Shown here one piece after another: positions 2 through 18,580 of a stretch of 20,000 bases of DNA (the stretch's first letter is position 1; each line of letters starts with the position of its first letter). The position numbers were made by a program, and so were the translations under genes. Where the stretch lies: the IMG/VR virus record IMGVR_UViG_3300013426_000032, one strand, 5' to 3'. The notes beneath the pieces are model-generated. The model saw only the letters and a program-made list of their open reading frames with translations. It made no database searches and was not told where the DNA came from. This stretch comes from an uncultured virus (IMG/VR IMGVR_UViG_3300013426_000032). Taxonomy: Duplodnaviria > Heunggongvirae > Uroviricota > Caudoviricetes.

Positions 2-538
2 GTTGCTATTACTTATATGGAATATGTTAGAGATAAATTACCATATATAGCAGATTATATAGATTCATTAGAAAAAGATGAATGTGGTGTTATAATAGAA
101 CATATATTGGGTAAATTAAATGAATTAATACCATCATTAACATATTTATCAACTTTAAATGGTGTTAATAATAATATCGTTGATTGTATAATAGAACTTA
201 TAAAATTTTTTAAATCATATACTGTAGATTTAAGAAATCTTAATGTTGTATATATATTCGATGATCCTTATTGGAATAGAATAAGAACTGTAGAAAATGT
301 TGATTTACATGTAAAAATACAACCTAGAGAAAAACCATTAGAATATAATGATATTAATTTTATTAGTTCGAATTATAATATTAATGAAAAAGTAAATTTA
401 TCATATGTAAATGCAATAGATATTGGTGATAATGGTACAATGGATAGAATGTTAATGAGATATAGTATGATTAATAATAAAATTTATAATGATGATAAAA
501 TCAATCTTAGAGACAAATTACAAATTATTTATGACTAA
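2..538 (+). CDS. C-terminal part of a large virion structural (baseplate-like) protein, 5'-truncated by the window edge
   Basis: Frame is open from base 2 to TAA at 536-538 and ATG17 has no RBS. The IELIKFFKSYTVDL segment resembles large baseplate proteins of AR9-like jumbo phages (from recall). Adjacent to other structural genes. Confidence 0.55.
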   Translation, partial: VAITYMEYVRDKLPYIADYIDSLEKDECGVIIEHILGKLNELIPSLTYLSTLNGVNNNIVDCIIELIKFFKSYTVDLRNLNVVYIFDDPYWNRIRTVENVDLHVKIQPREKPLEYNDINFISSNYNINEKVNLSYVNAIDIGDNGTMDRMLMRYSMINNKIYNDDKINLRDKLQIIYD

Positions 539-549
539 ACATTATAATA
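538..549 (+). promoter_or_regulatory. Late-type promoter AACA-N6-TA
   Basis: AACA-ttataa-TA(AG) upstream of the 577-2929 operon; matches the AR9 late consensus. Confidence 0.7.
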
Positions 550-576
550 AGATTAGTTTTTTTTGGAGGTAATGAA

Positions 577-903
577 ATGAAAGATGATAAAATGAAATTA
601 ACAATATTAGGGAAATTAGAAGAAGGAGAAGCTGTTGCTACTGTAAAAATAGACAATGTTATTTATATATGCAAAACAGATATTCAAACAACTTCTAGTT
701 TTAAAGGAATACAACCTGAAATTAAAATGTATGATGAGTATAGAAATGATTATAAAGACAGAGCTGTTTTAAAAACAGGGTTCGTTGAACCAGACGATAC
801 TTCTATAGATGATGTTGACAAACAAATAGATTTCATCAGAGAAAATTTACCAAAAATAGAAATAAAAGGAGTTGATGTAAATGACCAAGATATTAAAAGA
901 TAA
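577..903 (+). CDS. Hypothetical protein (108 aa)
   Basis: GGAGG RBS at 566-570; overlaps the next gene by 23 nt. Confidence 0.75.
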   Translation: MKDDKMKLTILGKLEEGEAVATVKIDNVIYICKTDIQTTSSFKGIQPEIKMYDEYRNDYKDRAVLKTGFVEPDDTSIDDVDKQIDFIRENLPKIEIKGVDVNDQDIKR

Positions 904-1714
904 TGTCAATAATAATGATAAAATCAGACCTATGAGAATAGAATCTAAACAAGGTAATTTAAAAACAAAAATAATAGGTTTAGATTCTTTAACTAAAGAA
1001 GTTTTGTTTGAAACAGAAAACCAAATAGTTTTAGGAGGAGCATTATTTATATTAGAAAAAGTATTTAATGTTAATTCTCCTATAACTGTAGAATATTTAA
1101 ATAATATAATGGGTATAGCAGCAGAAAACCCTATTGAAGAAAAATATCCTAAGAACACATCAGTATGCTTATTTGGTGTAGGCATAGGTGGGTGTGGTGA
1201 TTCTTCACTATCCGTAGTTGATGTTAATTTCTATGAAAGAGAAATATTTGATATGGTTCCTTTTAGAGTTACAGACGATGAATTAAATGAAGAAGATAAA
1301 GAAAAATATTGGTTTAAACGTAAAGAAAACGATGGAAGAACTTCATATTTCTTAAAAAAATTTGAACAAGATCCAACTATAAAAGTTTTATGGAAAGATG
1401 GAGATGAAGACGAAGATGGTTCTGAAGTTAGTAGTGGTGTTCATGATACTGCTCGTACTGAACCAATAGAAACATTTGCAGAAATGATATTAAAGATAAC
1501 TAAAAGAGATGTCAGAGAATATTTCGAAATAAATGGTGATATTGAAACAGCCAGAATAAATTCAATAGGATTATTTACTGGAATAAAACAAACTTTATCT
1601 GATGGTACAGAAGATTATAAACAAGTAAAATTATTTTCTAAATTAAACATACCTAATGAAATGCTTGTTAACAATAAAGATATGACTATTATATATAGAA
1701 TTTATACTTCATAG
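881..1714 (+). CDS. Putative baseplate/tail-fibre attachment structural protein
   Basis: AAGGAG RBS. Pattern N-x-IV-x-GG ... FGVGIGG ... I-x-S-I-GLF ... LFSK ... K-x3-IIYRIY is typical of baseplate/tail-collar proteins. Confidence 0.6.
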   Translation: MTKILKDNVNNNDKIRPMRIESKQGNLKTKIIGLDSLTKEVLFETENQIVLGGALFILEKVFNVNSPITVEYLNNIMGIAAENPIEEKYPKNTSVCLFGVGIGGCGDSSLSVVDVNFYEREIFDMVPFRVTDDELNEEDKEKYWFKRKENDGRTSYFLKKFEQDPTIKVLWKDGDEDEDGSEVSSGVHDTARTEPIETFAEMILKITKRDVREYFEINGDIETARINSIGLFTGIKQTLSDGTEDYKQVKLFSKLNIPNEMLVNNKDMTIIYRIYTS

Positions 1715-1726
1715 GAGGTGTAAATA

Positions 1727-2929
1727 GTGACTAGAAGAATAAGTGAAGCAGAAAAAAAGGAGTTATTACAAATAACTCCTGACCAAATAACATATACATT
1801 ATTAATGGATTTATTTGGTAAAAATTTAGTAGATGGTAAAGTAAAACCTGCTAGATTTTTACCTCAAGATGTATTTAAATTAAACAAAGGGGAATATATA
1901 AATAAAGATACAATAGATACTACTGTAGGAAGTTTTATATTTAATAAGTTTATAATAGAACCCAGATTTTCTACATTAATAGGTTATGATAATGATGTTA
2001 TTAATGGGAAAAATCTAGAGAATTTAGAAGCTAGATTAGCAGAATTGCTTAGAGATGATAAAATAGAACCAGCAGATTTTGCTGATTATTTGATGAGAAT
2101 ACAGTGGTTGGGTAATAAATTAAATGAACCAATAGCATCTTCATTTACTATGAAAGGAATGAAACCAGTTCCTAAAGTAATAAAAGAAAGAGATAAATTA
2201 ATAAAAGAAAATAAAAAGGCACTTGAAAAAGGTGATATAATCACGATGTCAGAAATAGAATCTAAATTAACTAAAATGGCTGAAGATGAAATAGGAGATG
2301 ATCCTTCTATGGATTTATACTATTCAGGAGCTAAAGGTTCTATAAGTAATAACTATAAACAGTTATCTATAATGAAAGGACCTATTATGAATCTAGCATC
2401 TGGTAAATATGAATTTGTAACTAAAAATTTCTATGAGGGAATATCTAAAGATGAAATATCTCCTACAGGTTCTAATGTTGTAAATGGTGCTTTCCCAAAA
2501 ACATGTGAAGTTAAGGATACAGGATATAAAGCTAAACAAATGAACTCAGCTTTACAATCTATTGTATTACGAGAAGATGTTCAAGATTGTGGTTCTAAAG
2601 GATATGTTGAAATATTATTAACTCCGACTGTAGCTAAAAAATGTAATGATCGATATATTATAGATGGTAATAAAACAGTTTTACTTACAAGTGAAAATAT
2701 GAATAAATATATAGGTAAAAAAGTTAAATTGAGATCTATTTTATATTGTGGTTGTGATTATGGTGTATGTTTAACATGTGCAGGATTGAGTTTTAAAAAA
2801 ATAGGAATAAATGTTGTTGGATTAACAGGTAGTGCTTTAACAGGTAGTCTTGTTAATATTAAAATGAAATCTTTTCATGATACATCAGTAAAGACAAATA
2901 TTATCGATCTGGATGATATAACTTTCTAG
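1727..2929 (+). CDS. rpoC: Phage multisubunit RNA polymerase beta' fragment (F-loop, bridge helix, Zn site, start of trigger loop); likely virion RNAP
   Basis: GTG start after GGAGG. SGAKGS..YKQL..MKG (region F); VKDTGYKAKQM (bridge helix, cf. TADSGYLTRRL); DCGS...LRSILYC...GVCLTCAG (Zn site); KMKSFH (trigger loop, cf. TMRTFH). Confidence 0.92.
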   Translation: MTRRISEAEKKELLQITPDQITYTLLMDLFGKNLVDGKVKPARFLPQDVFKLNKGEYINKDTIDTTVGSFIFNKFIIEPRFSTLIGYDNDVINGKNLENLEARLAELLRDDKIEPADFADYLMRIQWLGNKLNEPIASSFTMKGMKPVPKVIKERDKLIKENKKALEKGDIITMSEIESKLTKMAEDEIGDDPSMDLYYSGAKGSISNNYKQLSIMKGPIMNLASGKYEFVTKNFYEGISKDEISPTGSNVVNGAFPKTCEVKDTGYKAKQMNSALQSIVLREDVQDCGSKGYVEILLTPTVAKKCNDRYIIDGNKTVLLTSENMNKYIGKKVKLRSILYCGCDYGVCLTCAGLSFKKIGINVVGLTGSALTGSLVNIKMKSFHDTSVKTNIIDLDDITF

Positions 2930-2938
2930 TATTATAAT

Positions 2939-2950
2939 AACAAATTAATA
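2939..2950 (+). promoter_or_regulatory. Late-type promoter AACA-N6-TA
   Basis: AACA-aattaa-TA directly followed by the AGGAGG RBS. Confidence 0.65.
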
Positions 2951-2965
2951 AGGAGGATGAATAAA

Positions 2966-3289: not shown

Positions 3290-3294
3290 AATAT

Positions 3295-3341: not shown

Positions 3342-3366
3342 AATAATTATATATTATATAAATGAG
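3342..3366 (+). promoter_or_regulatory. Early-type promoter box (TATATTAT core), degenerate copy
   Basis: AATA-attatatattatataaa-TGAG aligns with the other six boxes. Confidence 0.6.
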
Positions 3367-3762: not shown

Positions 3763-3803
3763 TGTAAAACATAGACATTTTAATTCTATATTATCACTAT
3801 GTG
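3763..3803 (+). promoter_or_regulatory. Early-type promoter upstream of the RNAP beta' N-terminal gene
   Basis: TGTAAAACA-N6-TTTTA-attcTATATTATcacta-TG, same spacing as the copies at 6315, 17826 and 18650. Confidence 0.6.
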
Positions 3804-3861: not shown

Positions 3862-5319
3862 ATGATAATAAAAGATAATGAGTCCAAAATAGGTGCATAT
3901 CATCTTACCATTTTAGATATGGATAAACAAGCTGAACTTGATTTGAGAACAGGTAAAGGCTTCGTTGTAACAGAACCGATAAAAGATAAAAAAAGTACTG
4001 ATAATACTTATAATAAATGGGGCATTAGATCTGATTTCTTTTATAGTGAGATGCATACTGATAATGCATTCAAAGAAAGATATAGTTGTGAATGTGGATA
4101 TTTGATGGGAAAATCATATGAATCTGCAGTGTGTCCGTATTGTAGAAAACCAGTAAAATTAGTAGATATTGATTTAAGTAAATTTGGGTATATAGTATTA
4201 AAAAATCATAGAATAATACACCCCCAAATTTATATGTTCCTTGACAATATGTTTGGAAAGAAAAACAAAGCAAGTGTATTAAATAATATATTGAAAATTC
4301 CTAAACATATTGATACAGATGAAGAAGGTAATCCTGTTAAAGGATATGAAGATGAAGAACAATACAAAGACCAACCATATGCTAAGATCGGCATGTTGGA
4401 ATTTCAACGAAGATTTGATGAAATATTTGAATATTATGTTGAAAAGAATAAAAGAAATAAAAAAATGGCAGGTAATGCAGAGTTTATTAGACAAAATAGA
4501 GATAAGATTTTTATAAGATATATTCCAGTATTTAGTTCGGCATTAAGATTTTCTGTGATACAAGATGAGATAAACTTTGTTCATGGTGCAGATAAAATAT
4601 ATAATATTTTATTCAGCACAGTGTCAAGTCTAAATAAAGCTAACGATAATATACAAATGACTATAAATAAAAAATTAGCATATATTCAGAAACAAATGCA
4701 GAATCTATATGAGAAAATGTTCTCATTAATAAATAAAAAAGATGGTTTTATCAAATCAGGAGTCATTGCAGGTAAGATGAATTTCACAGGACGACATGTA
4801 ATAATACCAAATCCAAATTTAGCAGCTGATGAAATTATTGTACCTTATATGTCGTTTTTAGAAGAATATAAGTTTGAGATAATACGAATGTTGGCTAAAA
4901 CTCAAAATATAAGTGAATCACAGGCTTATAATGAATGGTATTATGGGTGCATAAAATTTAGCAATAAAATTTATGAAATAATGAAACGTATAATTGATGA
5001 AGGAGCATATTATGGAATTAATAGACCACCAACTATTGATTATGGTTCAGTATTGTTACAAAGAATTGTCGATGTAACTCATGAAATAGACGATTTGACT
5101 ATGTCGATTTCATTTATGATATTACCAGGATTAAATGCCGATTATGATGGTGATAATTTAACTACAATGAAATTATCATCTAAAGAACAAATCGAAGAAT
5201 GGAAAAGATTTAATCCTAAAAAATATATGATGATTTCACATGATGACGGTTTGCTTAATTTTAATATGTTGCCTATTAAAGATTTAGCAATAGGTATAAG
5301 TGAGTTCAATAAAATATAA
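3862..5319 (+). CDS. rpoC: Phage multisubunit RNA polymerase beta' N-terminal/catalytic fragment; likely non-virion RNAP
   Basis: AGGAGG RBS. Zn ribbon CECG..CPYC; GKMNFTGRHVI (cf. GKRVDYSGRSVI); INRPPTI (cf. LNRAPTL); catalytic NADYDGD. Confidence 0.95.
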   Translation: MIIKDNESKIGAYHLTILDMDKQAELDLRTGKGFVVTEPIKDKKSTDNTYNKWGIRSDFFYSEMHTDNAFKERYSCECGYLMGKSYESAVCPYCRKPVKLVDIDLSKFGYIVLKNHRIIHPQIYMFLDNMFGKKNKASVLNNILKIPKHIDTDEEGNPVKGYEDEEQYKDQPYAKIGMLEFQRRFDEIFEYYVEKNKRNKKMAGNAEFIRQNRDKIFIRYIPVFSSALRFSVIQDEINFVHGADKIYNILFSTVSSLNKANDNIQMTINKKLAYIQKQMQNLYEKMFSLINKKDGFIKSGVIAGKMNFTGRHVIIPNPNLAADEIIVPYMSFLEEYKFEIIRMLAKTQNISESQAYNEWYYGCIKFSNKIYEIMKRIIDEGAYYGINRPPTIDYGSVLLQRIVDVTHEIDDLTMSISFMILPGLNADYDGDNLTTMKLSSKEQIEEWKRFNPKKYMMISHDDGLLNFNMLPIKDLAIGISEFNKI

Positions 5320-5355
5320 ATATATGGGAGCTATAATAGCTCCCATATATTTTTT
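5318..5355 (+). terminator. Intrinsic terminator
   Basis: 17-bp inverted repeat AAATATATGGGAGCTAT/ATAGCTCCCATATATTT followed by a T-run. Confidence 0.85.
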
Positions 5356-5359
5356 ATAT

Positions 5360-5371
5360 AACAAAAATATA
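5360..5371 (+). promoter_or_regulatory. Late-type promoter AACA-N6-TA
   Basis: AACA-aaaata-TA between the terminator and the AGGAG RBS of the Nudix gene. Confidence 0.65.
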
Positions 5372-5386
5372 AAAGGAGATGGTTAT

Positions 5387-5878
5387 ATGAATAATTTTTT
5401 TAAGATTAGAGATAGTATAGTACATGAAGTATTATGTGAATCTAATATGATAAATAAAAAATTAAATAAAGATGATTTAAAAGATCATGATGCTGTTGGA
5501 GTTGTTATATTAATAAATAACAAGGTACTTATGTTAGATCATATAAAATTTAATATGTTAACAATACCTGTAGGAAAAGGAGACGATGGTGAATCTCCAG
5601 AAGATGCTATGATAAGAGAAACTCAAGAAGAAATAGGAATTAGATTACGAAATTTAAAACAAATAGTTCATTTTAAAAATCAAGAGGTTAGAAATGGAAT
5701 AACAGTGCATATGAATAGCTACGTTTATTTATGTGAAAATTTTACTGGAATTCCATATAATAAAGAACCAAATAAGCATAGAAATTTATTCTGGATGGAT
5801 TTTGATGAATTTTTACATTTAGATACTATATCATTTATGACTAATGCTGCCATAGATTATTTTAAAAACAATATGTAA
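5387..5878 (+). CDS. Nudix hydrolase
   Basis: Nudix box GKGDDGESPEDAMIRETQEEIG. Start moved to ATG5387 because AGGAG lies at 5374-5378 and the upstream extension runs through a terminator. Confidence 0.9.
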   Translation: MNNFFKIRDSIVHEVLCESNMINKKLNKDDLKDHDAVGVVILINNKVLMLDHIKFNMLTIPVGKGDDGESPEDAMIRETQEEIGIRLRNLKQIVHFKNQEVRNGITVHMNSYVYLCENFTGIPYNKEPNKHRNLFWMDFDEFLHLDTISFMTNAAIDYFKNNM

Positions 5879-5940
5879 TTCATGAGTTTTCATTACTATA
5901 TTATAATATTGAATAAGGTATAAAATAGTTTATATCTTAT
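5874..5940 (+). promoter_or_regulatory. Early-type promoter plus 5' leader hairpin (copy 1)
   Basis: TTCA-N17-TGAA at 5889-5913 with a TATATTAT core; hairpin 5913-5940; near-duplicate of 17456-17522. Confidence 0.7.
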
Positions 5941-5967
5941 ATATTTATAAAATATGGAGGTGCTCTT

Positions 5968-6279
5968 ATGAGTATAGAAAAGAATTATAGTGAATATTGG
6001 AATGAAATAAGTGGAGGATATTTCGATAGAAAAACTCCAGATAATGAAATAATAATGGCGTATTTAAATACTGAATCAGAAAATTTATTACAAGAGCTAT
6101 ATTGTAGATCAATAGTTAATTGGTCAAATAGTACCAAAGAATGGTTAGATAAAATTAAACCATTAGAATGCACAAACTGTAATTATGATTGTAATGATTG
6201 TGGATTAAAAGATATGTATGTTAGAGATCCTAAAACTAATTCATTGATTCATAAATCATTATTCTTAAAAAATAAATAG
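5968..6279 (+). CDS. Hypothetical protein with C-terminal Cys cluster (CxxCxxxCxxC)
   Basis: GGAGG RBS; ECTNCNYDCNDCG. Confidence 0.75.
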   Translation: MSIEKNYSEYWNEISGGYFDRKTPDNEIIMAYLNTESENLLQELYCRSIVNWSNSTKEWLDKIKPLECTNCNYDCNDCGLKDMYVRDPKTNSLIHKSLFLKNK

Positions 6280-6302
6280 GGTTATTCCCTATTTATTTTT
6301 TT
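6267..6302 (+). terminator. Intrinsic terminator (possibly bidirectional)
   Basis: AAAAAATAAATAGGG-ttatt-CCCTATTTATTTTTT. Confidence 0.8.
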
Positions 6303-6303
6303 A

Positions 6304-6355
6304 TATGTTCCTAGTGAAAAACACGAATATTTCAATTATATATCATAGTAGTGAA
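6304..6355 (+). promoter_or_regulatory. Early-type promoter (TATGTTCCT + TGAAAAACA + TTCA-N17-TGAA)
   Basis: Same architecture as the copies at 17780-17869 and 18639-18690. Confidence 0.7.
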
Positions 6356-6380
6356 TATAATAAACAGGAGGTAATTTTTT

Positions 6381-6986
6381 ATGAAAACAGAAATAATAGA
6401 GATGATAAGAGATATCTTACCTGAATATGATAAAGTTAACGAAGGTGGTCATGGTAGAGAACATATTATTGATGTCATTACTAAATCTTATCACATGGCT
6501 ATTGAATTTGGAGAAAATCCTGAAGTTTGTTGTACTGCTGCATTATTGCATGATATAGGATTATTGAATTATTCAAGAAAAATACACCATATAGGTTCAG
6601 CAATATATGTAACAGAACATATTGATATGTTATCTAGATATTTCAATGAAGAAGAAATATACAAAATATTCAGTGCAGTATTAGAACATCGATCAGGATT
6701 TAATGAAGAATATACTTCATTGGTATCAAAGATAGTTTCTGATGCCGATAGAAGTACGAATATATATCTAATGATATCTAGATCATATCAATATAATAAA
6801 AACAAAGGATTTAATGAAGAAAAAATATATAGAGAAGTATATTCACATTTAAAAGAAAAATATTATGATAGAAAATATACTTTCATATCTCGCTCATTAC
6901 AAGAAGAGTTAGATAATGCAAGAACAATATTGGAAAATAAGACATTATTTGATGAATATTATAAAAAAATAACATCTTCTCTATAA
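6381..6986 (+). CDS. HD-domain metal-dependent phosphohydrolase
   Basis: GHGREHI ... AALLHDIG ... HH ... EH ... DADR motif series; AGGAGG RBS. Confidence 0.9.
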   Translation: MKTEIIEMIRDILPEYDKVNEGGHGREHIIDVITKSYHMAIEFGENPEVCCTAALLHDIGLLNYSRKIHHIGSAIYVTEHIDMLSRYFNEEEIYKIFSAVLEHRSGFNEEYTSLVSKIVSDADRSTNIYLMISRSYQYNKNKGFNEEKIYREVYSHLKEKYYDRKYTFISRSLQEELDNARTILENKTLFDEYYKKITSSL

Positions 6987-6990
6987 ATGA

Positions 6991-7034
6991 ATAAAAAAAT
7001 AAAAGGAACTCTGAAGTTCCTTTTATTTTTTTAT
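6991..7034. terminator. Bidirectional intrinsic terminator
   Basis: 20-bp perfect arms ATAAAAAAATAAAAGGAACT-ctga-AGTTCCTTTTATTTTTTTAT. Confidence 0.85.
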
Positions 7035-7043: not shown

Positions 7044-7055
7044 AACAAATAACTA
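7044..7055 (+). promoter_or_regulatory. Late-type promoter AACA-N6-TA
   Basis: AACA-aataac-TA. Confidence 0.6.
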
Positions 7056-7079
7056 AATAGATTAATAGGAGGTATTTAT

Positions 7080-7871
7080 ATGAATAAAAATCAATTCGAT
7101 GAGATACTTATAAATGCTTTATATATGTTGGGAGGTACAAATGATACTCCATTTAAAGATATAAAGTTTTTTGAAGAAGAAAAGAATATAGATGATGGTA
7201 TATATTATAAAACAATGCAATGTTTAGAAGGCTTAGATGATGATGAATTCGATGAAGATTATGATTATAGTAGTATAGATATAAATGAAATAGCAGAAGA
7301 TATTACATCAAAAATAAATGTTGATCAAATAGTTGATGATGTAATGGATCGTTTATCTAAAAAAGATTCTTCAGAATTAATATTTCCTGGGGATGCCCCA
7401 ATAATTATATTGGATCCTGAAATATATAAAGATTTAGATGTAAATAGATTTGATTTAACTTTAAATAACTTTAAAAAGATAGATGATGATGATTTAAAAA
7501 AAATAGCAAATATTGAGGAAAAAATTAAAAAAATTAATATAGAAATGTTAAATAAAGTTAAAATGGGTATAAAATCAAAAGATGTATATGATATATTGCA
7601 TAAACGAAAAAATAGTTTAATTGAGGATTTATATAATAATATATGTGATAAAAAAACAGATGAAATTGAAAATATAATGACAGATTTTTGTAATTATGTT
7701 ATTAATAGTCAATATTGTAAAGATAAGTCTTCAGTTATAACTATGGTGGGTTCTACTGTAGTATGTGTTAGAAATTTTATGATAAATGAAGTTGATAATT
7801 TATTTAAACCTATACTTATTAAAGCAGGAAAAGATAGCGATGTTATAATGACATTAGTAAACTTATTATAA
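7080..7871 (+). CDS. Hypothetical acidic protein
   Basis: AGGAGG RBS; Asp/Glu-rich N-terminal half; no recognisable motif. Confidence 0.8.
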   Translation: MNKNQFDEILINALYMLGGTNDTPFKDIKFFEEEKNIDDGIYYKTMQCLEGLDDDEFDEDYDYSSIDINEIAEDITSKINVDQIVDDVMDRLSKKDSSELIFPGDAPIIILDPEIYKDLDVNRFDLTLNNFKKIDDDDLKKIANIEEKIKKINIEMLNKVKMGIKSKDVYDILHKRKNSLIEDLYNNICDKKTDEIENIMTDFCNYVINSQYCKDKSSVITMVGSTVVCVRNFMINEVDNLFKPILIKAGKDSDVIMTLVNLL

Positions 7872-7910
7872 TAAACAAAGTAGGATTTTCCTACTTTGTT
7901 TATTTTTTTT
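7870..7910 (+). terminator. Intrinsic terminator
   Basis: AATAAACAAAGTAGGA-ttt-TCCTACTTTGTTTATT plus T-run. Confidence 0.85.
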
Positions 7911-7917: not shown

Positions 7918-7929
7918 AACAAGACTATA
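7918..7929 (+). promoter_or_regulatory. Late-type promoter AACA-N6-TA
   Basis: AACA-agacta-TA(AG) at the head of the structural operon starting at 7958. Confidence 0.7.
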
Positions 7930-7957
7930 AGATAAAATTTAATAAGGAGGAAATAAT

Positions 7958-8815
7958 ATGCGTTATTCAATGTCAAGTGCAAGTATGGCACATACTTATG
8001 GAAATGTCACAACATTAGTAAACCAATGGTTGACTAGATTATTTCCTAAAAAATATTTCAAAACTAATTATGTTAATTCTACAATAGCATATAAGGATTT
8101 TGCTCAATATACTAGTAAACGAAGTGAATTTCTTAAGAAAAATAAACCAATGTTGGTTATGAGACCTAGAATAGAAACAGATACTTTAGATGATTTACCT
8201 ATAAATCAAACATATTTAGCTAATAGAATATATGATATGGCTAATGATGATATTGATACTGGTAATTTACAACAATTTTTCTATGATGAAGAAAATCATA
8301 GACAAATTCAATTCCTGATGACAGCATTAAGAATAAATTTTGATGTTACTTTAATAGTAGATACATTAATGGAACAACTAAATTTGTATCATTATTTTAA
8401 ACAAAGAGTTAGACAAGAATGGACTTCTGTAATGATTGCAGATTTAGAATCATTTATATCTAGAGATATAATGTATCTATTAGCAGTTGATGCTGGTTAC
8501 GAGGATGTATTTACAGATGGAAAACGTATGGGGGATTTTTTATCATATGTAAATTCCCATTCAATATATCCAGTTACAGTTAAATATAAAAATAGTTCGG
8601 GTAGACATGAATTTTTTAGATTTCATCCATGTCATTTGAATGTTACTATACAAAATTTAGCTATTGATGAAGGTAATAAAAAAGGTCAGATATATGATAG
8701 TTATAATATAACATTTTCTGTTAGATGTGATTTTATTACAGCTGGCTGTATTATTATATGTCTGATAATGATAATATATTTAATAATCAATTACCTTCTA
8801 ATGATGATTTATTAG
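7958..8815 (+). CDS. Virion structural protein (neck/tail-completion-like), N-terminal part of a frameshifted gene
   Basis: AAGGAGG RBS. PMLVMRPRIE ... INFDVTLIVDTLMEQLNL resembles tail-terminator/completion folds (weak). The last ~23 residues look out of frame. Confidence 0.6.
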   Translation: MRYSMSSASMAHTYGNVTTLVNQWLTRLFPKKYFKTNYVNSTIAYKDFAQYTSKRSEFLKKNKPMLVMRPRIETDTLDDLPINQTYLANRIYDMANDDIDTGNLQQFFYDEENHRQIQFLMTALRINFDVTLIVDTLMEQLNLYHYFKQRVRQEWTSVMIADLESFISRDIMYLLAVDAGYEDVFTDGKRMGDFLSYVNSHSIYPVTVKYKNSSGRHEFFRFHPCHLNVTIQNLAIDEGNKKGQIYDSYNITFSVRCDFITAGCIIICLIMIIYLIINYLLMMIY

Positions 8816-9222
8816 TAGATAGTATAGTACCAGTTATAACTCCACAACAATTATACAGTAATTCTAGAATACCCGAAGGTTGGAATTTATATACTGCTCC
8901 ATTATTTGATTTAAGTGATTATAATGGAAAACCACCATATGAATTAAGTTTTAAAGAATTCATAAATACTAGTTTAAATGAAGCAATTAAATATCATAGA
9001 AAGAATGGTATACCTCTGGATACTTTTATGAATATAGAAGTTCATAAAAATGATAGAATTATGGATGAAAAAAGAGGAGAATATAAAATTGATTGGGATA
9101 ATTTAAAAATATTAATTTATAATTGTAATACACATCAAGACTATAGATTAATAATAACTGTATTTACTAAATATTTGAATGATTTGTTAGATGATATTAT
9201 TCATTATTCAGATGAGAAATAA
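8758..9222 (+). CDS. C-terminal part of the same structural gene (-1 frame)
   Basis: No RBS before ATG8758; frame is open from 8731 and overlaps the preceding ORF. Confidence 0.6.
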   Translation: MSDNDNIFNNQLPSNDDLLVDSIVPVITPQQLYSNSRIPEGWNLYTAPLFDLSDYNGKPPYELSFKEFINTSLNEAIKYHRKNGIPLDTFMNIEVHKNDRIMDEKRGEYKIDWDNLKILIYNCNTHQDYRLIITVFTKYLNDLLDDIIHYSDEK

Positions 9223-12169: not shown

Positions 12170-13357
12170 ATGTATAATATAGACGATATTTTAGATAATC
12201 GTGATAATATAATAGAATCAATGAGTTATTTTAATCCATTAATAATAGAAGAACATAATGCTATTGTTACTGAAGGTATAATAGGCAATATAGCGGAAAC
12301 TATACGAAAATTATTTGAAATGATTCGTGGTTGGATAGGTAAATTAATCGATTTTGTTGCAAGTAAATTTAGTAGAAGAAAAAAAAATAAAAAATCTTCT
12401 TCTGATGATAAATCAACAAAAACAAAGAAAAATAATAATCAATCTGATGATAATGGAAATAATGGTTTATCTGATGCTTTTTATGATGCAGTTGAAAAAG
12501 AAAATGTTAAAAAACTTAGAATAATGCTAAAAGATGCATTATTAACAGATTTATCATTTAAGACTTATGATAATATGACCAGAATAGCTCATAGAATAAA
12601 AGGTTTATATGATGAAGATAATAAAGAAGGTTATGATAGAAATGAGGAACATTGGGATAAATCGTATATGGATAAAGTTTTAAGTATGTTAATAAAAGAT
12701 GGATATTTTTCTAAAAGAAGAATCGCTCATGCCAAATTAGTAATTAAACATGTATACTCAAAAGATAAAAGTTCTTTTACAAAGGAATTAGCTAAACGAG
12801 AAAAAAAACAACAAGATGCATTAAAAAATCATCCTAATAGTAAAAAAATGGATGAGATTTTAAAAGATGATGGTCCTGTTAAAAGCTTAAAAATGTTTAA
12901 ATTACCAACATTAAAAGATGCTAAAAAAGCTATTTCTGATATAAAACGAGAATGTGAAACAGCATTAAAACAAAAAGACCCAGGTAGTTATGCTTCTAAA
13001 GATGAACAAGCGATACGTAAATTCTTTGTTATCGGTAGTGAAAAAGAAATATCTCATAGTAAATTAATAAAAGATAGTGTTTATCTATCATATACTGATG
13101 AAGGTGGAAAAATTTGTGTTGATCAACTTAGAGCATATAAAAAAGCATTGGAAAATGAATATACTCATTTACACAATGCAGCAGTTAAAGAAACTAATCA
13201 AGAGAAAGCACAAGCTTTAGTAAAAAAAGCAAAAGGAATAAATATGATGACCCAAAAAACAATGGGTATAGCAATAAAATGTTTTCTACATTATTCAGAT
13301 GTAGTAACAAAAGCCATGGAGCAAGCAAAATTAATGATAGAGATAGGAGTGAATTAA
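12170..13357 (+). CDS. Putative internal head protein, paralogue 1 (with inserted helical domain)
   Basis: Shared leader IIESMSYFNPLIIEEHN..VTEG and C-terminal module KLPxLKDAKKA...CVDQLR...MTQ. Confidence 0.65.
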   Translation: MYNIDDILDNRDNIIESMSYFNPLIIEEHNAIVTEGIIGNIAETIRKLFEMIRGWIGKLIDFVASKFSRRKKNKKSSSDDKSTKTKKNNNQSDDNGNNGLSDAFYDAVEKENVKKLRIMLKDALLTDLSFKTYDNMTRIAHRIKGLYDEDNKEGYDRNEEHWDKSYMDKVLSMLIKDGYFSKRRIAHAKLVIKHVYSKDKSSFTKELAKREKKQQDALKNHPNSKKMDEILKDDGPVKSLKMFKLPTLKDAKKAISDIKRECETALKQKDPGSYASKDEQAIRKFFVIGSEKEISHSKLIKDSVYLSYTDEGGKICVDQLRAYKKALENEYTHLHNAAVKETNQEKAQALVKKAKGINMMTQKTMGIAIKCFLHYSDVVTKAMEQAKLMIEIGVN

Positions 13358-13358
13358 C

Positions 13359-14585
13359 ATGAATAATATAAATAACATATTATTAGAAAGAGATTGTATT
13401 ATCGATTCAATGAGTTATTTTAATCCATTGATTATAGAAGAACATAATGTTGTCGTTACTGAAGGCATTGTCGGGGGTATAGTAGAAAAATTAAAAGCTT
13501 TATATGAAATGATAAAAGGATGGATAAAAAAACTTATCGATTTCATTGCAAGTAAATTTAGTAGAGGTAAAAAAGGCGGAAAAGTTAGTACTAGTAACGA
13601 TAGTGTTGAACGAGCTAAGGAAGCAAATAAAAATGCTGGAGACACATTAAATGATTTACAAGAAAAAACAAAACAACTAGAAAAAGAAAAAGATGAATTG
13701 AAAAAATTGAATGATACTATATCTAAAAAAACAGAGCAAGTATCTAAAAAAGCAAAAGAAGTATCTAAAAAAGCAGAAGTTATTAAGAAAAAGAAAGAAG
13801 ACGAGCAAAAAAAGAAAGAAATGTTACAAGAAATAGAAAAAGAAAAAGAAAGATTAAGAAATAATATAACAGAATGTAAAAATGATATAGAAAAAATTAA
13901 AAAGAGAATGGGAAGTTTACCAAAAAGAATAAAAGAACAAGAAAATAAAATAGCTAAATTAAAAAATAATGAAATAGGATATGATGTTAAACGTCTTAAA
14001 GTTCCAGATTTAAAAAATGCAAAAAGTGCTATAAATGATATAATGAATGATTGTAAAAAAGCTATAATGACTGATAATCCTTATGAAAGTTTTAGAGGAA
14101 AAACAATAAAAATGTATTTTCTTAAAAGTAATAGAGAATTAGATATGTTATTGAGAGATTTTTTACAAAATAAAGATTTTGCTTCTTACAATTATGATGC
14201 AGGTCAAGACTGTGTCGATCAATTAAGAAAATACGAAAAAAGTGTGGATGCAACATATAATGCTTTACAACAGAGAGCGACTCATATATCAGTGGCAAAT
14301 AAAAATGAAGCAGATAAAATATTAAATAAAGCTAAAGGAGTTAATCAAATAACACAACAAGTATTAAAAGGAGCAGTAACAATGTTATCTGGTTATGTTG
14401 ATAGAATAGGTAGTTTAAGATCAAAATATAGCGTAGATACACGTAACAATGCTTCCGTATTAAGATCAGAAGAAGCTAAATTACAAGATATGAAAGAAGA
14501 TTACATGGAGCTATATAAAGAACAAATAGCACATGCAACACAAAGAATTAAAGATTGTGAAACAGAATTAAATGGTTTATCATAA
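13359..14585 (+). CDS. Putative internal head protein, paralogue 2 (coiled-coil insert and extension)
   Basis: Same N- and C-terminal modules; K/E-rich heptad region between them; AGGAG RBS. Confidence 0.65.
   Translation: MNNINNILLERDCIIDSMSYFNPLIIEEHNVVVTEGIVGGIVEKLKALYEMIKGWIKKLIDFIASKFSRGKKGGKVSTSNDSVERAKEANKNAGDTLNDLQEKTKQLEKEKDELKKLNDTISKKTEQVSKKAKEVSKKAEVIKKKKEDEQKKKEMLQEIEKEKERLRNNITECKNDIEKIKKRMGSLPKRIKEQENKIAKLKNNEIGYDVKRLKVPDLKNAKSAINDIMNDCKKAIMTDNPYESFRGKTIKMYFLKSNRELDMLLRDFLQNKDFASYNYDAGQDCVDQLRKYEKSVDATYNALQQRATHISVANKNEADKILNKAKGVNQITQQVLKGAVTMLSGYVDRIGSLRSKYSVDTRNNASVLRSEEAKLQDMKEDYMELYKEQIAHATQRIKDCETELNGLS
13719..13781 (+). repeat. Three tandem 21-nt (7-codon) repeats
   Basis: ATATCTAAAAAAACAGAGCAA / GTATCTAAAAAAGCAAAAGAA / GTATCTAAAAAAGCAGAAGTT, encoding ISKKTEQ VSKKAKE VSKKAEV. 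Confidence 0.75.
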
Positions 14586-14611
14586 AGAAAGCAAAAAAAG
14601 ATAATAATAAG

Positions 14612-14623
14612 AACAATTTAATA
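14612..14623 (+). promoter_or_regulatory. Late-type promoter AACA-N6-TA
   Basis: AACA-atttaa-TA(AG). Confidence 0.7.
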
Positions 14624-14660
14624 AGATTATTAATAAAATAAAGGAGGTTGGAGATATATC

Positions 14661-15428
14661 ATGGCAAATATAAAAGATATATTCAATGAAAAAGATATCA
14701 TAATAGAATCAATGAGTTATTTTAATCCATTGATTCTAGAAGAACATAATGTTGTTGTTACTGAAGGTGTTGTTGGAGGTATAGTAGAAAAATTAAAAGC
14801 TTTATATGAAATGATAAAAGGATGGCTTAGTAAATTAATAAGTTTTGTTGCTGATAAATTTAGTGGTAAAGGTAGAAAGAAATCATCTTCAGATTCATCT
14901 ACAACAAATAGTGAAAAAAAAGCAGAATCGGGATCTAGTAAAACGAAAACAACTTCGGATGCTGATAATGTAGTTAAATTACCAAAATTAAAAGATGCTA
15001 AAAAAGCAGTAGCTTCTTTAATAAAAGATTGTCAAAATGCATTAAGAGCAAATAAACCTGATGAATATTTTGATGCTGATCCTAAATCATACTTTTTAGA
15101 TGGTAATCAAGAACAAAAAATAACATTAAAAGAATTAGCTAAAAATCCTATATATGGTTCTTATAGTGAAGAAGTTGGTAAAGATTGTTTAGATAAATTA
15201 AGAAGTTATCAAAAAAGCTTAGAAGATTCATATAAAGAAATGCAAAGAAATATTGAAAGATTTAAAGATGCTAATAAAGAACAAACAGATAAAATAATAG
15301 TTAGAGCTAAAAGTACAAATAAGATGACACAAAGAGTTTTAGGTACAGGAGTAAAAACATTAGCAGTTTTAGTAAATAAAATTTCATTAGCTGTAGGTAG
15401 AGCTAAGAGAGTAACTAGAAATGACTAA
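14661..15428 (+). CDS. Putative internal head protein, paralogue 3 (minimal form)
   Basis: Same N- and C-terminal modules joined only by an S/T/K linker; AAGGAGG RBS. Confidence 0.65.
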   Translation: MANIKDIFNEKDIIIESMSYFNPLILEEHNVVVTEGVVGGIVEKLKALYEMIKGWLSKLISFVADKFSGKGRKKSSSDSSTTNSEKKAESGSSKTKTTSDADNVVKLPKLKDAKKAVASLIKDCQNALRANKPDEYFDADPKSYFLDGNQEQKITLKELAKNPIYGSYSEEVGKDCLDKLRSYQKSLEDSYKEMQRNIERFKDANKEQTDKIIVRAKSTNKMTQRVLGTGVKTLAVLVNKISLAVGRAKRVTRND

Positions 15429-15458
15429 AAGAAATTTCTATAATACAAATATTATTTT

Positions 15459-15495
15459 TAGAATCATTGGGTTATATTAACCCAATGGTTTTAAA
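15459..15495 (+). terminator. Intergenic hairpin (terminator/attenuator or stability element)
   Basis: TAGAATCATTGGGTTA-tat-TAACCCAATGGTTTTA (G-U pairs allowed), short T-run. Confidence 0.6.
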
Positions 15496-15514
15496 TATAA
15501 AGGAGGATTTGTAG

Positions 15515-16438
15515 ATGACTAATATAAATGATTTAATTATTGAAAAAAATTTAATAATGGAATCTATAGCATATAATTATTTTGACCCATTAGATTATCT
15601 TTGTGAATCAATAGATATATTATTAGAAGAAGATAATAATGATAATAAAAATGCTAATGCAAATAATGATAAAGATAATTTAAAAGAAAATGATAAGCGA
15701 TTTAATTTTGATGCTAAAAAAGCTATAGCTGATATGATTAGAATATTAATACAATGGTTTACTAGACTTAAAGATGCAATGAGTGCTTTTTTTAAAGGAT
15801 TTAGAAATTTAAATCACAAAAAATTAATAAAAGAAATATTTGTCGATCCAAATAAACATAAAAAGAAAATAAAAGTGTATAATTATATAAATATGCGAAA
15901 TGGTGTGGCTAATGCTAATGAATTAATAAGTAAAGCTACTGGTATATTAAATAATAGTATAAAAGCTAAGAATCCAAGTATGGATGATTATAAACAACAA
16001 GTAATACGAGCTTTTGATATAGATTCTCTTGGAGGTGGAGCTCTTAAAGCTAGAACATATGCTTGTTTTATTAAAAAAAATGAAAAGATAAAAATAACTA
16101 TAGGGCAATTAAACGAGCAAATAGTATCTAGTTATTTATTAGGTGCTAATGATACTGTTAATAACATAGAAAGATGGAAGAATGATCTTAGATCTACTAT
16201 GCAAAAAACGGATATGGATATTTATCAACAATTTAGAGCAGGACAAATGGATCAAAAAACATCTAGACAATTTACTAGTTTATTAAAAACACATACAGGA
16301 ATAGTAGAAAAAATATGTGTATATTCAATGAAATGTATTAAAAAAGCATATAGTGATTTTAATAAAATAGTTACTAAAGGTAATGGTACTACAGAAAATA
16401 TAGAAAATAAAGAAAACGGTGATGATAATGAAAAATAA
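15515..16438 (+). CDS. Putative internal head protein, distant paralogue
   Basis: Leader MTNINDLIIEKNLIMESIAYNYFDPL..LCES..LLEE, then an amphipathic helix with W (MIRILIQWF) as in paralogues 1-3. Confidence 0.6.
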   Translation: MTNINDLIIEKNLIMESIAYNYFDPLDYLCESIDILLEEDNNDNKNANANNDKDNLKENDKRFNFDAKKAIADMIRILIQWFTRLKDAMSAFFKGFRNLNHKKLIKEIFVDPNKHKKKIKVYNYINMRNGVANANELISKATGILNNSIKAKNPSMDDYKQQVIRAFDIDSLGGGALKARTYACFIKKNEKIKITIGQLNEQIVSSYLLGANDTVNNIERWKNDLRSTMQKTDMDIYQQFRAGQMDQKTSRQFTSLLKTHTGIVEKICVYSMKCIKKAYSDFNKIVTKGNGTTENIENKENGDDNEK

Positions 16439-16880: not shown

Positions 16881-16885
16881 TTTAT

Positions 16886-17416: not shown

Positions 17417-17448
17417 GGATATATGAGTTTCTCAAATATCTTTTTTTT
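17415..17448 (+). terminator. Intrinsic terminator ending the late operon
   Basis: AAGGATAT(A)TGAG-ttt-CTCA(A)ATATCTTT plus T-run. Confidence 0.65.
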
Positions 17449-17455
17449 ATCGTTC

Positions 17456-17522
17456 TGTAATTCATGAGATTTCATTACTATATTATATCTGTGAATAAGA
17501 TGTAAAATGGTTTATGTCTTAT
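17456..17522 (+). promoter_or_regulatory. Early-type promoter plus 5' leader hairpin (copy 2)
   Basis: TTCA-N17-TGAA at 17471-17495; hairpin 17495-17522; near-duplicate of 5874-5940. Confidence 0.7.
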
Positions 17523-17552
17523 ATCTTTTTATATTATACAGGGGGTTTTAAA

Positions 17553-17735: not shown

Positions 17736-17747
17736 TTTAGTTTTGAG

Positions 17748-17778
17748 AGGTAGGACTTTACATCCTGCCTTATTTTTT
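17748..17778 (+). terminator. Intrinsic terminator
   Basis: AGGTAGGA-ctttaca-TCCTGCCT plus TATTTTTT. Confidence 0.7.
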
Positions 17779-17825
17779 CTATGTTCCTTGTTATTTTTTA
17801 TATGAATATATACATACTAATAAAA

Positions 17826-17869
17826 TGAAAAACATACATATTTCAATTATATATTATATAATTGAAATA
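17826..17869 (+). promoter_or_regulatory. Early-type promoter containing a perfect 15-1-15 palindrome
   Basis: TGAAAAACA then TATTTCAATTATATA-T-TATATAATTGAAATA (17839-17869). Confidence 0.75.
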
Positions 17870-17889
17870 AAATTATTGGAGGTAATATT

Positions 17890-18498
17890 ATGTTATATTT
17901 AAACAAAAAATTTGAAGTTGTGGAAAGAGAAATGAAATGGGGAAAATTAGAATGTGTTGAATTGGGTGAAGAAGGTAGAGGAAGAAAATTATTCGCATTA
18001 CCAGTTCCTAAAAGACTTTTAGAAAGAGAAAACCCAAATAGAAGATATTTTAAAGAAGGAAAACATTCTGATCTAACAATAGGTTTATCAAAATCAGGAA
18101 AACCAAGAATTAACTATAATATTAATGAAAATGTTGAACCATTTATATATGTAATAATAGATTCTTATAAAGGATATACTAGAAGGGGTTGTGGTTCTAT
18201 CTCTATTTTACTAGGTGATGATATTGAAGAATTGGCATATGGTAATGGAGCAGATGGGGATGCTGGACGTATTGGTGATTGGGATGTAAAATTATTAAAA
18301 ATACCAAATGATGGAAAATTAAGAATAATAAAATGCATTTATTCAGGAAGACGTTATAGAGATGATGAACACGAATATACGTTATTCTTCTGTAAAGGAG
18401 AAGAAGTGGATGAAGTGTGGAATGGAGAAATAGATGATTATATAGATATTAAAGGAATTGATTTAGAAGATGAAATTATCGATATGATAAAGAAATAA
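17890..18498 (+). CDS. Hypothetical phage protein (Gly/Arg-motif rich, early)
   Basis: GGAGG RBS; motifs LGEEGRGRK, GYTRRG, GNGADGDAGRIGDWD; function unknown. Confidence 0.8.
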   Translation: MLYLNKKFEVVEREMKWGKLECVELGEEGRGRKLFALPVPKRLLERENPNRRYFKEGKHSDLTIGLSKSGKPRINYNINENVEPFIYVIIDSYKGYTRRGCGSISILLGDDIEELAYGNGADGDAGRIGDWDVKLLKIPNDGKLRIIKCIYSGRRYRDDEHEYTLFFCKGEEVDEVWNGEIDDYIDIKGIDLEDEIIDMIKK

Positions 18499-18504
18499 TA
18501 TAAG

Positions 18505-18542
18505 ATATAAGCCTAGTTTTTACTAGGCTTATATTTTTTTTT
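18505..18542 (+). terminator. Intrinsic terminator
   Basis: ATATAAGCCTAGT-tttt-ACTAGGCTTATAT plus T-run. Confidence 0.85.
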
Positions 18543-18568
18543 ATAAATTAAAATTTCATTAGATATCT

Positions 18569-18580
18569 AACAAATTTGTA
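18569..18580 (+). promoter_or_regulatory. Late-type promoter AACA-N6-TA (no immediate ORF)
   Basis: AACA-aatttg-TA just after a terminator, the same placement as other late sites. Confidence 0.45.

Follow-up and report, generated by a model that had tools for sequence, protein, structure and literature searches.

Can a phage use the promoter code of AR9 in DNA that contains thymine? The non-virion RNA polymerase (nvRNAP) of Bacillus phage AR9 is the textbook example of a polymerase whose promoter is recognised on the template strand and in uracil-containing DNA only. The question is raised by a stretch of 20,000 nt from an uncultured virus (IMG/VR record IMGVR_UViG_3300013426_000032), here called the window, in which seven intergenic copies of AACA-N6-TAA were noticed in an initial annotation. 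From these copies it was proposed that the phage has AR9-type promoters and may carry deoxyuridine (dU) instead of thymidine (dT). We suggest that AACA-N6-TAA is very probably a promoter read by the phage's own RNA polymerase, as in AR9. We also consider it likely that the two parts of the answer go together as promoters of the nvRNAP/gp226 type on thymine-containing DNA.

The late promoters of AR9 and PBS1 have the consensus 5'-AACA-(6N)-TA/G and are served by a five-subunit nvRNAP made of gp270, gp154, gp105, gp089 and gp226 (PMC5312081; PMC9209446). Of the 118 AR9 start sites that are not early, 94 have AACA-(6N)-TA/G and begin transcription at its last base (PMC5312081), and nvRNAP plus gp226 has been shown to use the motif (PMC7598289). 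The holoenzyme with gp226 reads the complement of the motif on the template strand, and the consensus is inactive with thymine (PMC9209446).

As placed by PHROG and tblastn searches, the window is part of a jumbo phage encoding split multisubunit RNA polymerases. Its GC content is 25%, and the genes called in it, with a simple open reading frame (ORF) caller of our own, are all on the plus strand. Megablast of the window against cultured phages gave no DNA-level match, and neither did an exact-match search of IMG/VR. The window's own contig is 22,959 bp long, stops at the window's end and has no visible gp226. IMG/VR holds four syntenic relatives, with a protein identity of 82-90% in beta-prime and a DNA identity of 78-90%; a fifth related contig, a fragment, was found in an IMG/VR scan with a gp226 alignment, giving six loci in all. 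Two relatives were taken whole: G001 (265,959 bp, rated 100% complete) and G002 (231,410 bp, 94%). G001 encodes NrdD and NrdG, the anaerobic type of ribonucleotide reductase, and therefore points to an anaerobe as the host. We take the source for an uncultured AR9-like jumbo phage of an anaerobe, and we refer to it and its relatives as the clade.

All seven sites are present on the plus strand, each with an A after the TA, and the list is complete, as the window has no eighth intergenic site:

538..550, plus strand: late-type (nvRNAP) promoter candidate AACATTATAATAA; predicted start A549, 28 nt before the ATG at 577
2939..2951, plus strand: late-type promoter candidate AACAAATTAATAA; predicted start A2950, 16 nt before the ATG at 2966
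5360..5372, plus strand: late-type promoter candidate AACAAAAATATAA; 8 nt past the terminator at 5318-5352 and 16 nt before the NUDIX start at 5387
7044..7056, plus strand: late-type promoter candidate AACAAATAACTAA; after the hairpin at 6991-7034; predicted start A7055, 25 nt before the ATG at 7080
7918..7930, plus strand: late-type promoter candidate AACAAGACTATAA; after the terminator at 7870-7904; predicted start A7929, 29 nt before the ATG at 7958
14612..14624, plus strand: late-type promoter candidate AACAATTTAATAA; predicted start A14623, 38 nt before the ATG at 14661 of a paralogous family member
18569..18581, plus strand: late-type promoter candidate AACAAATTTGTAA; 32 nt past the terminator at 18502-18537 and 137 nt before the gene start

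Enrichment over an AT-matched background had been put forward as a check, and it was seen between genes but not window-wide. Across the whole window and both strands, AACA-N6-TA occurs 26 times, against 31.63 +/- 5.56 in 200 dinucleotide-preserving shuffles, 175 of which reach 26. The intergenic test covered 19 upstream stretches (1,889 nt in total, each with 3 nt of the preceding stop codon) and gave seven sense and no antisense matches, against 1.23 +/- 1.06 in 1000 mononucleotide shuffles; the shuffle maximum was 6, and 0 of 1000 reached 7. When the motif is taken as AACA-N6-TAA, seven matches stand against 0.49. Sense matches have a density of 3.71/kb in intergenic DNA versus 0.83/kb in coding DNA (15 matches in 18,033 nt). 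When the spacer of AACA-Nk-TAA was varied from 0 to 12, all seven fell at k=6, with 0-3 at each of the twelve other spacings.

The same pattern is seen on a larger scale in the two relatives taken whole. Intergenic sense matches to AACA-N6-TA number 80 in G001 against 18.0 in shuffles (maximum 32) and 74 in G002 against 17.4 (maximum 30), and for AACA-N6-TAA they number 67 against 7.2 and 57 against 7.1. At other spacings these 67 and 57 fall to 3-17 and 5-20, respectively. Box variants placed before N6-TAA are rare in the two genomes together, with AACA found 124 times, ACAA 7, CAAA 8, AAAC 8 and GACA 2. Antisense counts (35 in G001, 31 in G002) are above the shuffle mean, which we attribute to divergent intergenic regions being counted for both neighbours. 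Ninety-three of 161 matches end 10-40 nt upstream of a start codon. A is the fifth base in 84-89% of matches and follows TA in 77-84%, and the clade's consensus, AACAA-N5-TAA, is longer than that of AR9 by two bases.

Run on 100 kb of AR9 as a positive control, the same pipeline gave 19 versus 4.6 and 18 versus 7.3. The N6 peak also appears in other phages that have gp226: phiR1-37 (64 versus 25.6), LPJP1 (54 versus 30.3) and S6 (38 versus 23.0). The base after TA is lineage-specific, being G in phiR1-37 (84%), T in LPJP1 (89%) and T in S6 (84%), against the A of this clade. Because these phages share the N6 peak and each has a preferred next base, we tie the motif to the gp226 family. In print, MEME is described as having recovered no late consensus for MarsHill (MarsHill preprint), and the account of AR9 transcription states that none had been identified for phiR1-37 (PMC5312081).

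Position relative to genes agrees with a promoter role. At six of the seven sites the final A is followed after 16-38 nt by a start codon supported by a ribosome-binding site, much as had been proposed, and at 18569 the distance is 137 nt. Leaders of 16-38 nt would be compatible with the final A as the transcription start. The initial annotation placed the sites mostly right after a stop or terminator; four of them come after hairpins, and 538, 2939 and 14612 follow no terminator. The window has 18 terminator-like hairpins versus 2.1 expected, and four of these end 8-32 nt before a motif:

5318..5352, plus strand: intrinsic-terminator-like hairpin, ending the nvRNAP beta-prime N gene
6991..7034, plus strand: terminator-like hairpin, before the 7044 site
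7870..7904, plus strand: intrinsic-terminator-like hairpin, before the 7918 site
18502..18537, plus strand: intrinsic-terminator-like hairpin, before the 18569 site

The motif is also conserved beyond its surroundings. When G001 was compared with G002, 57 of the 80 G001 sites were alignable and 47 of the 57 kept the full motif; identity was 0.959 over the six core positions, as against 0.830 for the spacer and 0.821 for the flanks. At 538, where the first A is the last base of the upstream stop codon, AACA-N6-TA is kept in all four relatives and the sequence downstream diverges; the operon behind it contains a virion-structural-protein homologue and a piece of the virion-RNAP beta-prime. The 12-mer at 7044 is identical in four of four relatives with differing flanks, and at 7918 AACA and TATAAG are kept in four of four, with varying spacer bases. 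The 2939 site is kept in three of the four (L003-L005), the sequence being different in L002.

Two RNA polymerase genes lie in the window:

3862..5319, plus strand: gene for the N-terminal half of nvRNAP beta-prime, AR9 gp270 homologue (phrog_2987, 3e-64)
1727..2929, plus strand: virion-RNAP beta-prime fragment gene (phrog_2962, 3.9e-61), in the operon downstream of the 538 promoter

Among cultured phages, tblastn matched the product of 3862-5319 to phiR1-37 (31%), S6-like staphylococcal phages (29%), BpSp and AR9/PBS1 (28%, E 1e-32), and the gene matched in AR9 is g270, which is annotated as the N-terminal subunit of nvRNAP beta-prime. The product of 1727-2929 is 36.6% identical to its AR9 counterpart (E 6e-68), and its homologue in Staphylococcus phage MarsHill is annotated 'viral RNA polymerase beta-prime subunit'. 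A homologue of gp226, which the initial annotation had named as something to look for, was found as a gp226-like ORF in five of five related contigs. By phmmer this protein matches PDB 7s01_A (AR9 gp226) across residues 45-494 (E 2.4e-6). Its AlphaFold2 model has a predicted local distance difference test score of 85.6, and a Foldseek search with the model returned 7s01_A first (E 4.1e-15, template-modelling scores 0.49/0.53) and next a phiKZ nvRNAP chain, 8que_B (2.4e-5), which is presumably phiKZ gp68. A gp105 homologue (31% identity, Arg363 invariant) is present in three of five relatives, including both near-complete ones, and G001 has further RNAP beta and beta-prime ORFs besides it. The split beta/beta-prime nvRNAP core is thus represented by beta-prime N in the window and gp105 in the relatives, homologues of gp154 and gp089 not being individually assigned. 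The wider gp226-like family is large, as 359 clusters at 50% identity match at E<=0.001.

A second class of promoter candidates, TATATTAT-N6-G, was found in the intergenic DNA of the window (7 sense versus 1 antisense), of G001 (33 versus 7) and of G002 (31 versus 5). The early promoter consensus of AR9 is AAATATATATTAT-(6N)-G (PMC5312081). In the clade the pattern is TATAT[TC]AT-N6-G with a long conserved upstream extension, G[TA]AAAA.AT ... TTTCAATTA, and the class has two subclasses, TTTCAATTATATATTAT and TTTCATTACTATATTAT. The candidates in the window are:

3350..3364, plus strand: early-type (virion RNAP) promoter candidate TATATTAT-N6-G, from a motif match
3787..3801, plus strand: early-type promoter candidate, upstream of the nvRNAP beta-prime N gene
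5897..5911, plus strand: early-type promoter candidate of subclass TTTCATTACTATATTAT, from a motif match
6339..6353, plus strand: early-type promoter candidate, TATATCAT variant, upstream of the HD-domain gene
17479..17493, plus strand: early-type promoter candidate, from a motif match
17850..17864, plus strand: early-type promoter candidate with the extended upstream consensus GAAAAACA...TTTCAATTA
18674..18688, plus strand: early-type promoter candidate, between the 18569 late-type site and its gene

The two classes sort genes in a manner that recalls AR9. The window's nvRNAP beta-prime N gene is behind the early-type site at 3787. In G001 the genes with early-type promoters only include those for the gp226-like protein, an RNAP beta (Rpb2 domain 6) that is taken to be nvRNAP beta, gyrase, ligase and primase; early promoters are likewise found for g226 in AR9 (PMC5312081). 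Late-type motifs had been expected upstream of structural genes, and in G001 they are the nearest upstream promoter for 22 of 22 genes with a structural label, none of which is early-only. The early-type promoter at 18674 sits between the 18569 site and its gene, a dual early-plus-late arrangement, and continuously expressed genes of AR9 bear both promoter types (PMC5312081).

A 1.66-kb cassette at 5361-7018, flanked by two copies of a terminator-tail-plus-AACA junction, consists of a NUDIX gene, a Cys-rich ORF of 103 aa and a gene with an HD domain. The Cys-rich ORF and the HD gene each have an early-type promoter, and the NUDIX gene comes after the late-type site at 5360. The cassette is missing from L003-L005, and the insert in L002 is partly different.

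Whether the genome contains uracil or thymine was judged from gene content in the relatives, compared with a reference set of five phages known or presumed to have uracil-DNA (AR9, BpSp, LPJP1, S6 and phiR1-37). ThyA (PF00303) is encoded by three of four relatives, including both near-complete ones, and by none of the five reference phages. The relatives' ThyA scores 331.1 bits on the NCBIfam equivalog NF002495 (cut-off 327) and is 50-57% identical to phage genes annotated as thymidylate synthase. Its best PDB matches, 1b02 and 1bko, are named thymidylate synthase (E 1e-51), and we take them to be Bacillus subtilis ThyA. In the alignment with these two, Pro-Cys, Arg-Arg and Arg-Ser-Asn-Asp stretches are identical, presumably the catalytic and dUMP-binding motifs. 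In G001 and G002 alike the gene is found about 8 kb farther on than the point equivalent to the window's end, and its ratio of non-synonymous to synonymous polymorphism (pN/pS) between the two genomes is 0.26, indicating purifying selection. Thymidylate_kin, the dTMP-kinase family, is found in four of five relatives and none of the five reference phages; this Tmk-like protein is 48% identical between G001 and G002, has a pN/pS of 0.81 and scores below the NCBIfam dTMP-kinase cut-offs. ThyX was found in none of the ten genomes and contigs (relatives and uracil-DNA phages).

Other enzymes named in the initial annotation gave a mixed picture. The dUTPase (PF00692) is absent, as had been anticipated, from four of four relatives, yet it is also absent from all five uracil-DNA phages. 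Its absence says little, because it is missing from these phages and equally from thymine-compatible genomes. A dCTP/dCMP deaminase domain is present in four of five relatives, with a specificity for dCMP or dCTP that cannot be read from sequence. An inhibitor of uracil-DNA glycosylase (Ugi), sought with AR9 g104 as the query, had no match in five relatives at E<=1, a weak negative given an 84-residue fast-evolving protein and no control genome. Uracil-DNA phages have dT-nucleotide-removing enzymes, Dtm (PF06941 or PF12917) and Dtt (PF01725) (PMC12697855). HAM1-type Dtt (PF01725) was found in none of five relatives, with phiR1-37 recovered as positive control, and YfbR-type Dtm (PF12917) in none of ten, including the five relatives. 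NT5C (PF06941), the PBS1-type Dtm, was likewise found in none of ten, and as these include AR9, whose enzyme is known, the search is uninformative. The HD and NUDIX proteins of the window have generic family matches only, and neither is callable as a dT-nucleotide hydrolase. Overall, no gene-content test that was run (ThyA, the dTMP-kinase family, Ugi, dT hydrolases and Val206, discussed below) supports the uracil inference. As the closest relatives make thymidylate, thymine is likelier than uracil, and on this reading of the genes we hold it highly likely that the DNA carries thymine.

Two observations may be recorded beside these. In G001 the deaminase domain (L022:1080-2354, minus strand) is fused to a 275-aa C-terminal region without a family match, which has no counterpart in the five uracil-DNA phages. 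When the avoidance of palindromes was used as a proxy for uracil or thymine, the observed/expected ratio of GATC was 0.40-0.44 for G001 and G002, as against 0.65-0.85 for three uracil-DNA phages; phiR1-37, too, avoids several T-containing hexamers, and tetramers made of G and C only are avoided in all. CCGG and GGCC both have counts of zero in G001 and G002 versus 16-26 expected, and GCGC occurs 0 times versus 15.1 expected in G001 and 9 versus 12.5 in G002.

The recognition pocket is the place where uracil is told from thymine in AR9. There, the -10 uracil lies between gp226 Ile207 and gp105 Arg363 and is bonded to Lys375; its C5 is 3.9 A from the C-beta of gp226 Val206, where a thymine methyl would clash, and a V206G mutant of gp226 accepts thymine (PMC9209446). 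Tyr210 stacks on -9G, which packs against -11U, and the authors describe the valine as 'absolutely conserved' in uracil-DNA phages (PMC9209446). In the gp226-like proteins of the relatives Val206 is replaced by Leu and Tyr210 by Gln, and gp105 Lys375 is aligned to Ala; the pairing of Leu with Val206 is the same in HMMER and MAFFT alignments. Asp204, Ile207 and Trp208 of gp226 and Arg363 of gp105 are kept. Val206 together with Tyr or Phe at 210 is present in AR9, BpSp, LPJP1, S6 and phiR1-37. Position 206 is hypervariable in the wider family: in the 122 full-length sequences among the best 150 matches it is V in 21, K in 16, T in 16, G in 14, L in 13 and P in 10, with others in the rest, and Val206 plus Tyr210 occurs in only 5 of these 122. 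The Gly found at 206 in the wider family resembles the engineered, thymine-tolerant V206G. The change from Val206 to Leu in the clade would show only that the signature of the uracil phages is missing.

Several points weigh against the view that these are nvRNAP promoters on thymine-containing DNA. The relatives amount to about two independent lineages, because the gp226-like proteins of G002, G003 and G004 are identical and these are nearly one phage, and the content in gp226, ThyA and Tmk is carried over to the window's phage from relatives only. The 5360 site is the weakest of the seven and is conserved in no relative, with GACA in L002 and the cassette missing from L003-L005; it also falls within a longer alternative ORF starting at GTG 5300. 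For 14612 and 18569 no orthologous intergenic region was alignable in the relatives, and about 18 of the 80 matches in G001 are expected by chance. Nor is the motif restricted to late genes. Besides the structural genes, 14 of 20 DNA-metabolism genes in G001 have the late-type motif nearest, and the late-only class, with 20 of 22 structural versus 14 of 20 DNA-metabolism genes, shows no significant difference (Fisher p=0.12). Given this p value and the motif at DNA-metabolism genes, we prefer 'middle/late nvRNAP promoter' to a strictly late one. Leu, like Val, has a C-beta, and the change at 206 alone therefore predicts no thymine tolerance. Finally, the cultured phages nearest to the clade in RNAP and gp226 all have uracil-DNA, the lack of a dUTPase in the relatives counts against thymine, and the deaminase domain shares 34% identity with AR9 g221, a member of the PBS1 dCTP deaminase family (PMC12697855).

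These last points would be accommodated if the AR9-type nvRNAP promoters came with dU in place of dT and with an enzyme that needs dU at template positions -11 and -10, as the initial annotation had it. The closest cultured kin of the window's RNAP subunits (AR9/PBS1, BpSp, LPJP1, S6-like staphylococcal phages and phiR1-37) are reported or presumed to have uracil-DNA (PMC7598289; MarsHill preprint), tblastn with AR9 gp226 finds homologues in only 21 phage records, all of phages of the uracil-DNA group, and the consensus is the very one that is inactive with thymine in AR9 (PMC9209446). We nevertheless think a uracil genome unlikely. A phage that purges dT should not synthesise dTMP, and ThyA at equivalog level and a dTMP-kinase family protein, neither of them seen in the five uracil-DNA phages, therefore speak against it. 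So do the failure to find Dtt or YfbR-type Dtm and, weakly, Ugi in the five relatives, and the Leu and Gln that replace the valine and tyrosine of the uracil phages. The related contigs were also assembled from several ordinary metagenomes, a weak argument, as the library methods are not known; dU DNA blocked standard PCR-based Illumina libraries for MarsHill-like phages (MarsHill preprint). A variant of this explanation keeps the nvRNAP promoters and supposes a thymine-derived or 5-substituted uracil, for example 5-hydroxymethyluracil made by a ThyA-family hydroxymethylase and the Tmk-like kinase. ThyA-family enzymes include hydroxymethylases, which leaves room for a modified thymine and is a further point against a plain-thymine reading. 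A ThyA-family enzyme, a dCMP deaminase and a dNMP kinase would also fit the 5-hydroxymethyldeoxyuridine pathway, since SPO1-type phages have such an enzyme set, and the Tmk-like protein is fast-evolving and under its family's cut-offs. The MarsHill preprint names dUMP hydroxymethylase and HMdUMP kinase as genes of this type. We regard this as very unlikely: ThyA passes the thymidylate-synthase equivalog cut-off, and its annotated and structural matches are thymidylate synthases as well; no dUTPase or dTTPase that would exclude dT was found in the relatives; and a bulkier C5 group would suit an AR9-type pocket even less.

The remaining alternatives concern the motif itself. One of the proteins of G001, 190 aa long, has the domains Sigma70_r2 and Sigma70_r4, and its nearest upstream promoter is early-type, so that one could imagine the host RNAP, with a phage sigma-70-family factor, reading the motif in place of nvRNAP. 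This is highly improbable, as a six-base spacer is incompatible with a -35/-10 pair, the box tolerates GACA so rarely (2 versus 124), sigma-70-type matches in the window are not enriched (189 versus 193.8 expected), and the N6 peak is common to AR9, where use by nvRNAP and gp226 was shown (PMC7598289), and to three other gp226-bearing phages. It is hardly credible that the motif is no promoter at all and is instead a by-product of AT-rich intergenic composition or terminator tails, or a signal at the RNA level such as a processing site. The lack of window-wide enrichment, the low information content in DNA of 25% GC and the adjacency of several sites to T-rich terminator tails would fit such an origin. 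However, composition-matched shuffles never equal the intergenic count, which is confined to one spacer length and one strand; the core is conserved above spacer and flanks between diverged relatives; and three sites (538, 2939 and 14612) have no terminator before them. AR9-type promoter recognition, as first proposed, is well supported by the consensus, spacer, orientation, gp270 homologue, gp226-like subunits and early promoters.

With nvRNAP promoters on thymine-containing DNA as the preferred reading, we can suggest how the system may work; start sites, the pairing of enzymes with promoters and timing we infer by homology. The injected virion RNAP would read TATATTAT-N6-G and transcribe early genes, including the nvRNAP subunit of the window and the gp226-like gene of the relatives. 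The nvRNAP would then be directed by the gp226-like, sigma-like fifth subunit to the seven sites, as in AR9, and by analogy the holoenzyme would recognise the template-strand bases complementary to AACA, at about -11 to -8. Transcription would start at or beside the A of the TA dinucleotide, leaving leaders of 16-38 nt. The late-type promoters would drive middle and late genes, comprising all structural genes and many replication genes. The clade's dCMP deaminase, thymidylate synthase and dTMP-kinase-like enzyme would put thymine into the genome, and its gp226-like subunit would work without the uracil-selecting residues. There is, in our estimate, a little better than an even chance that the clade is a natural thymine-DNA branch of the AR9-like phages, reading AACA-N6-TA with thymines through a reshaped gp226/gp105. 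If this is true, the promoter code can be uncoupled from uracil and probably predates it, and the need for uracil would be a later specialisation of the subgroup with Val206 plus Tyr/Phe210. The extra conserved bases of AACAA-N5-TAA would then offset the lost discrimination against host DNA.

Further features of the window and of G001 deserve a brief description. The ORFs at 7958-8815 and 8758-9222 are halves of one 421-aa gene, intact in G001; what splits them is a 1-nt deletion near 8746, either a true frameshift or a fault of the assembly. Four tandem paralogues of 395, 408, 255 and 307 aa occupy 12170-16438; they have a conserved N-terminus (…ESMSYFNPLI.EEHN…) and variable, charged, coiled-coil-like middles, vary in copy number and order among the relatives and gave no family match. 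A tandem repeat array at about 74,900-75,700 of G001 (L012, about 14,900-15,700) lies about 1.4 kb beyond the 5' end of the gp226-like gene. Its repeats are about 60 or 89 nt apart, each with paired GGATT.TT..GCC boxes (14 matches, one strand), and it has no Rfam match and no tRNA; a tRNA scan of G001 likewise found none. Other cargo of G001 comprises a 4,229-aa ORF with M23, GDSL and C39-like peptidase domains, Tad2-like and Tad8-like anti-Thoeris domains, a MazF/PemK-like ORF, an IF-1-like ORF, the 190-aa sigma-70-family protein, FtsH-like and GroEL-like proteins and several collagen-repeat fibre proteins.

We found no published description of AR9-type promoters in phages that encode thymidylate synthase, in a literature search that covered texts without their supplements. 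A clade with the same promoter code, a gp226-like subunit and its own ThyA would be a natural experiment on whether sequence readout and uracil readout are separable, and through which residues. In addition, the intergenic, spacer-controlled count recovers late-type motifs here and in phiR1-37, LPJP1 and S6, and could therefore serve for operon-level annotation of uncultured jumbo phages.

Compared with AR9/PBS1, the clade has the same tetranucleotide, six-base spacer and TA, in sense orientation upstream of genes, together with homologues of gp270 (in the window) and of gp105 and gp226 (in the relatives). It also shares the early core TATATTAT-N6-G, the placing of nvRNAP and gp226 genes behind early promoters and of structural genes behind late ones, and the invariant Asp204, Ile207 and Trp208 of gp226 and Arg363 of gp105. 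Unlike AR9, it has an extended consensus with stronger enrichment, Leu206 and Gln210 in gp226 and Ala for Lys375 in gp105, ThyA and a dTMP-kinase family gene, no Ugi homologue that we could find, and NrdD/NrdG (in G001) as against the NrdE/F of AR9; its protein identity to AR9 is only 21-37%. By RNAP subunits the nearest cultured phages are Staphylococcus S6/MarsHill, Listeria LPJP1, Bacillus BpSp and Yersinia phiR1-37, which have gp226 homologues as the clade does, and S6, LPJP1 and phiR1-37 share with it the N6 peak of AACA-Nk-TA, but with T (S6 and LPJP1) or G (phiR1-37) after TA where the clade has A. The uracil-DNA reference phages resemble the clade in having no dUTPase and, in all of them, a dCMP-deaminase-family gene, and differ from it in keeping Val206 and Tyr/Phe210 and in having neither ThyA (0/5) nor Thymidylate_kin (0/5).

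A 2026 review presents uracil as the means by which jumbo phages without a nucleus keep their polymerase off host DNA (PMC13282480). The tubulin family had no match among 271 ORFs of G001 at E<=1e-5, no search for chimallin having been made. The nvRNAP of the nucleus-forming phiKZ works on thymine DNA (PMC7598289), and like that of the clade it has five subunits, the fifth being sigma-like and sharing its fold family with the clade's gp226-like protein (8que_B in the Foldseek search). Unlike the clade, phiKZ has TATG as its late promoter, a short start-site motif without an AACA box (PMC7598289), and the clade's gp226-like protein is nearer to AR9 gp226 than to the phiKZ chain in both sequence and fold.

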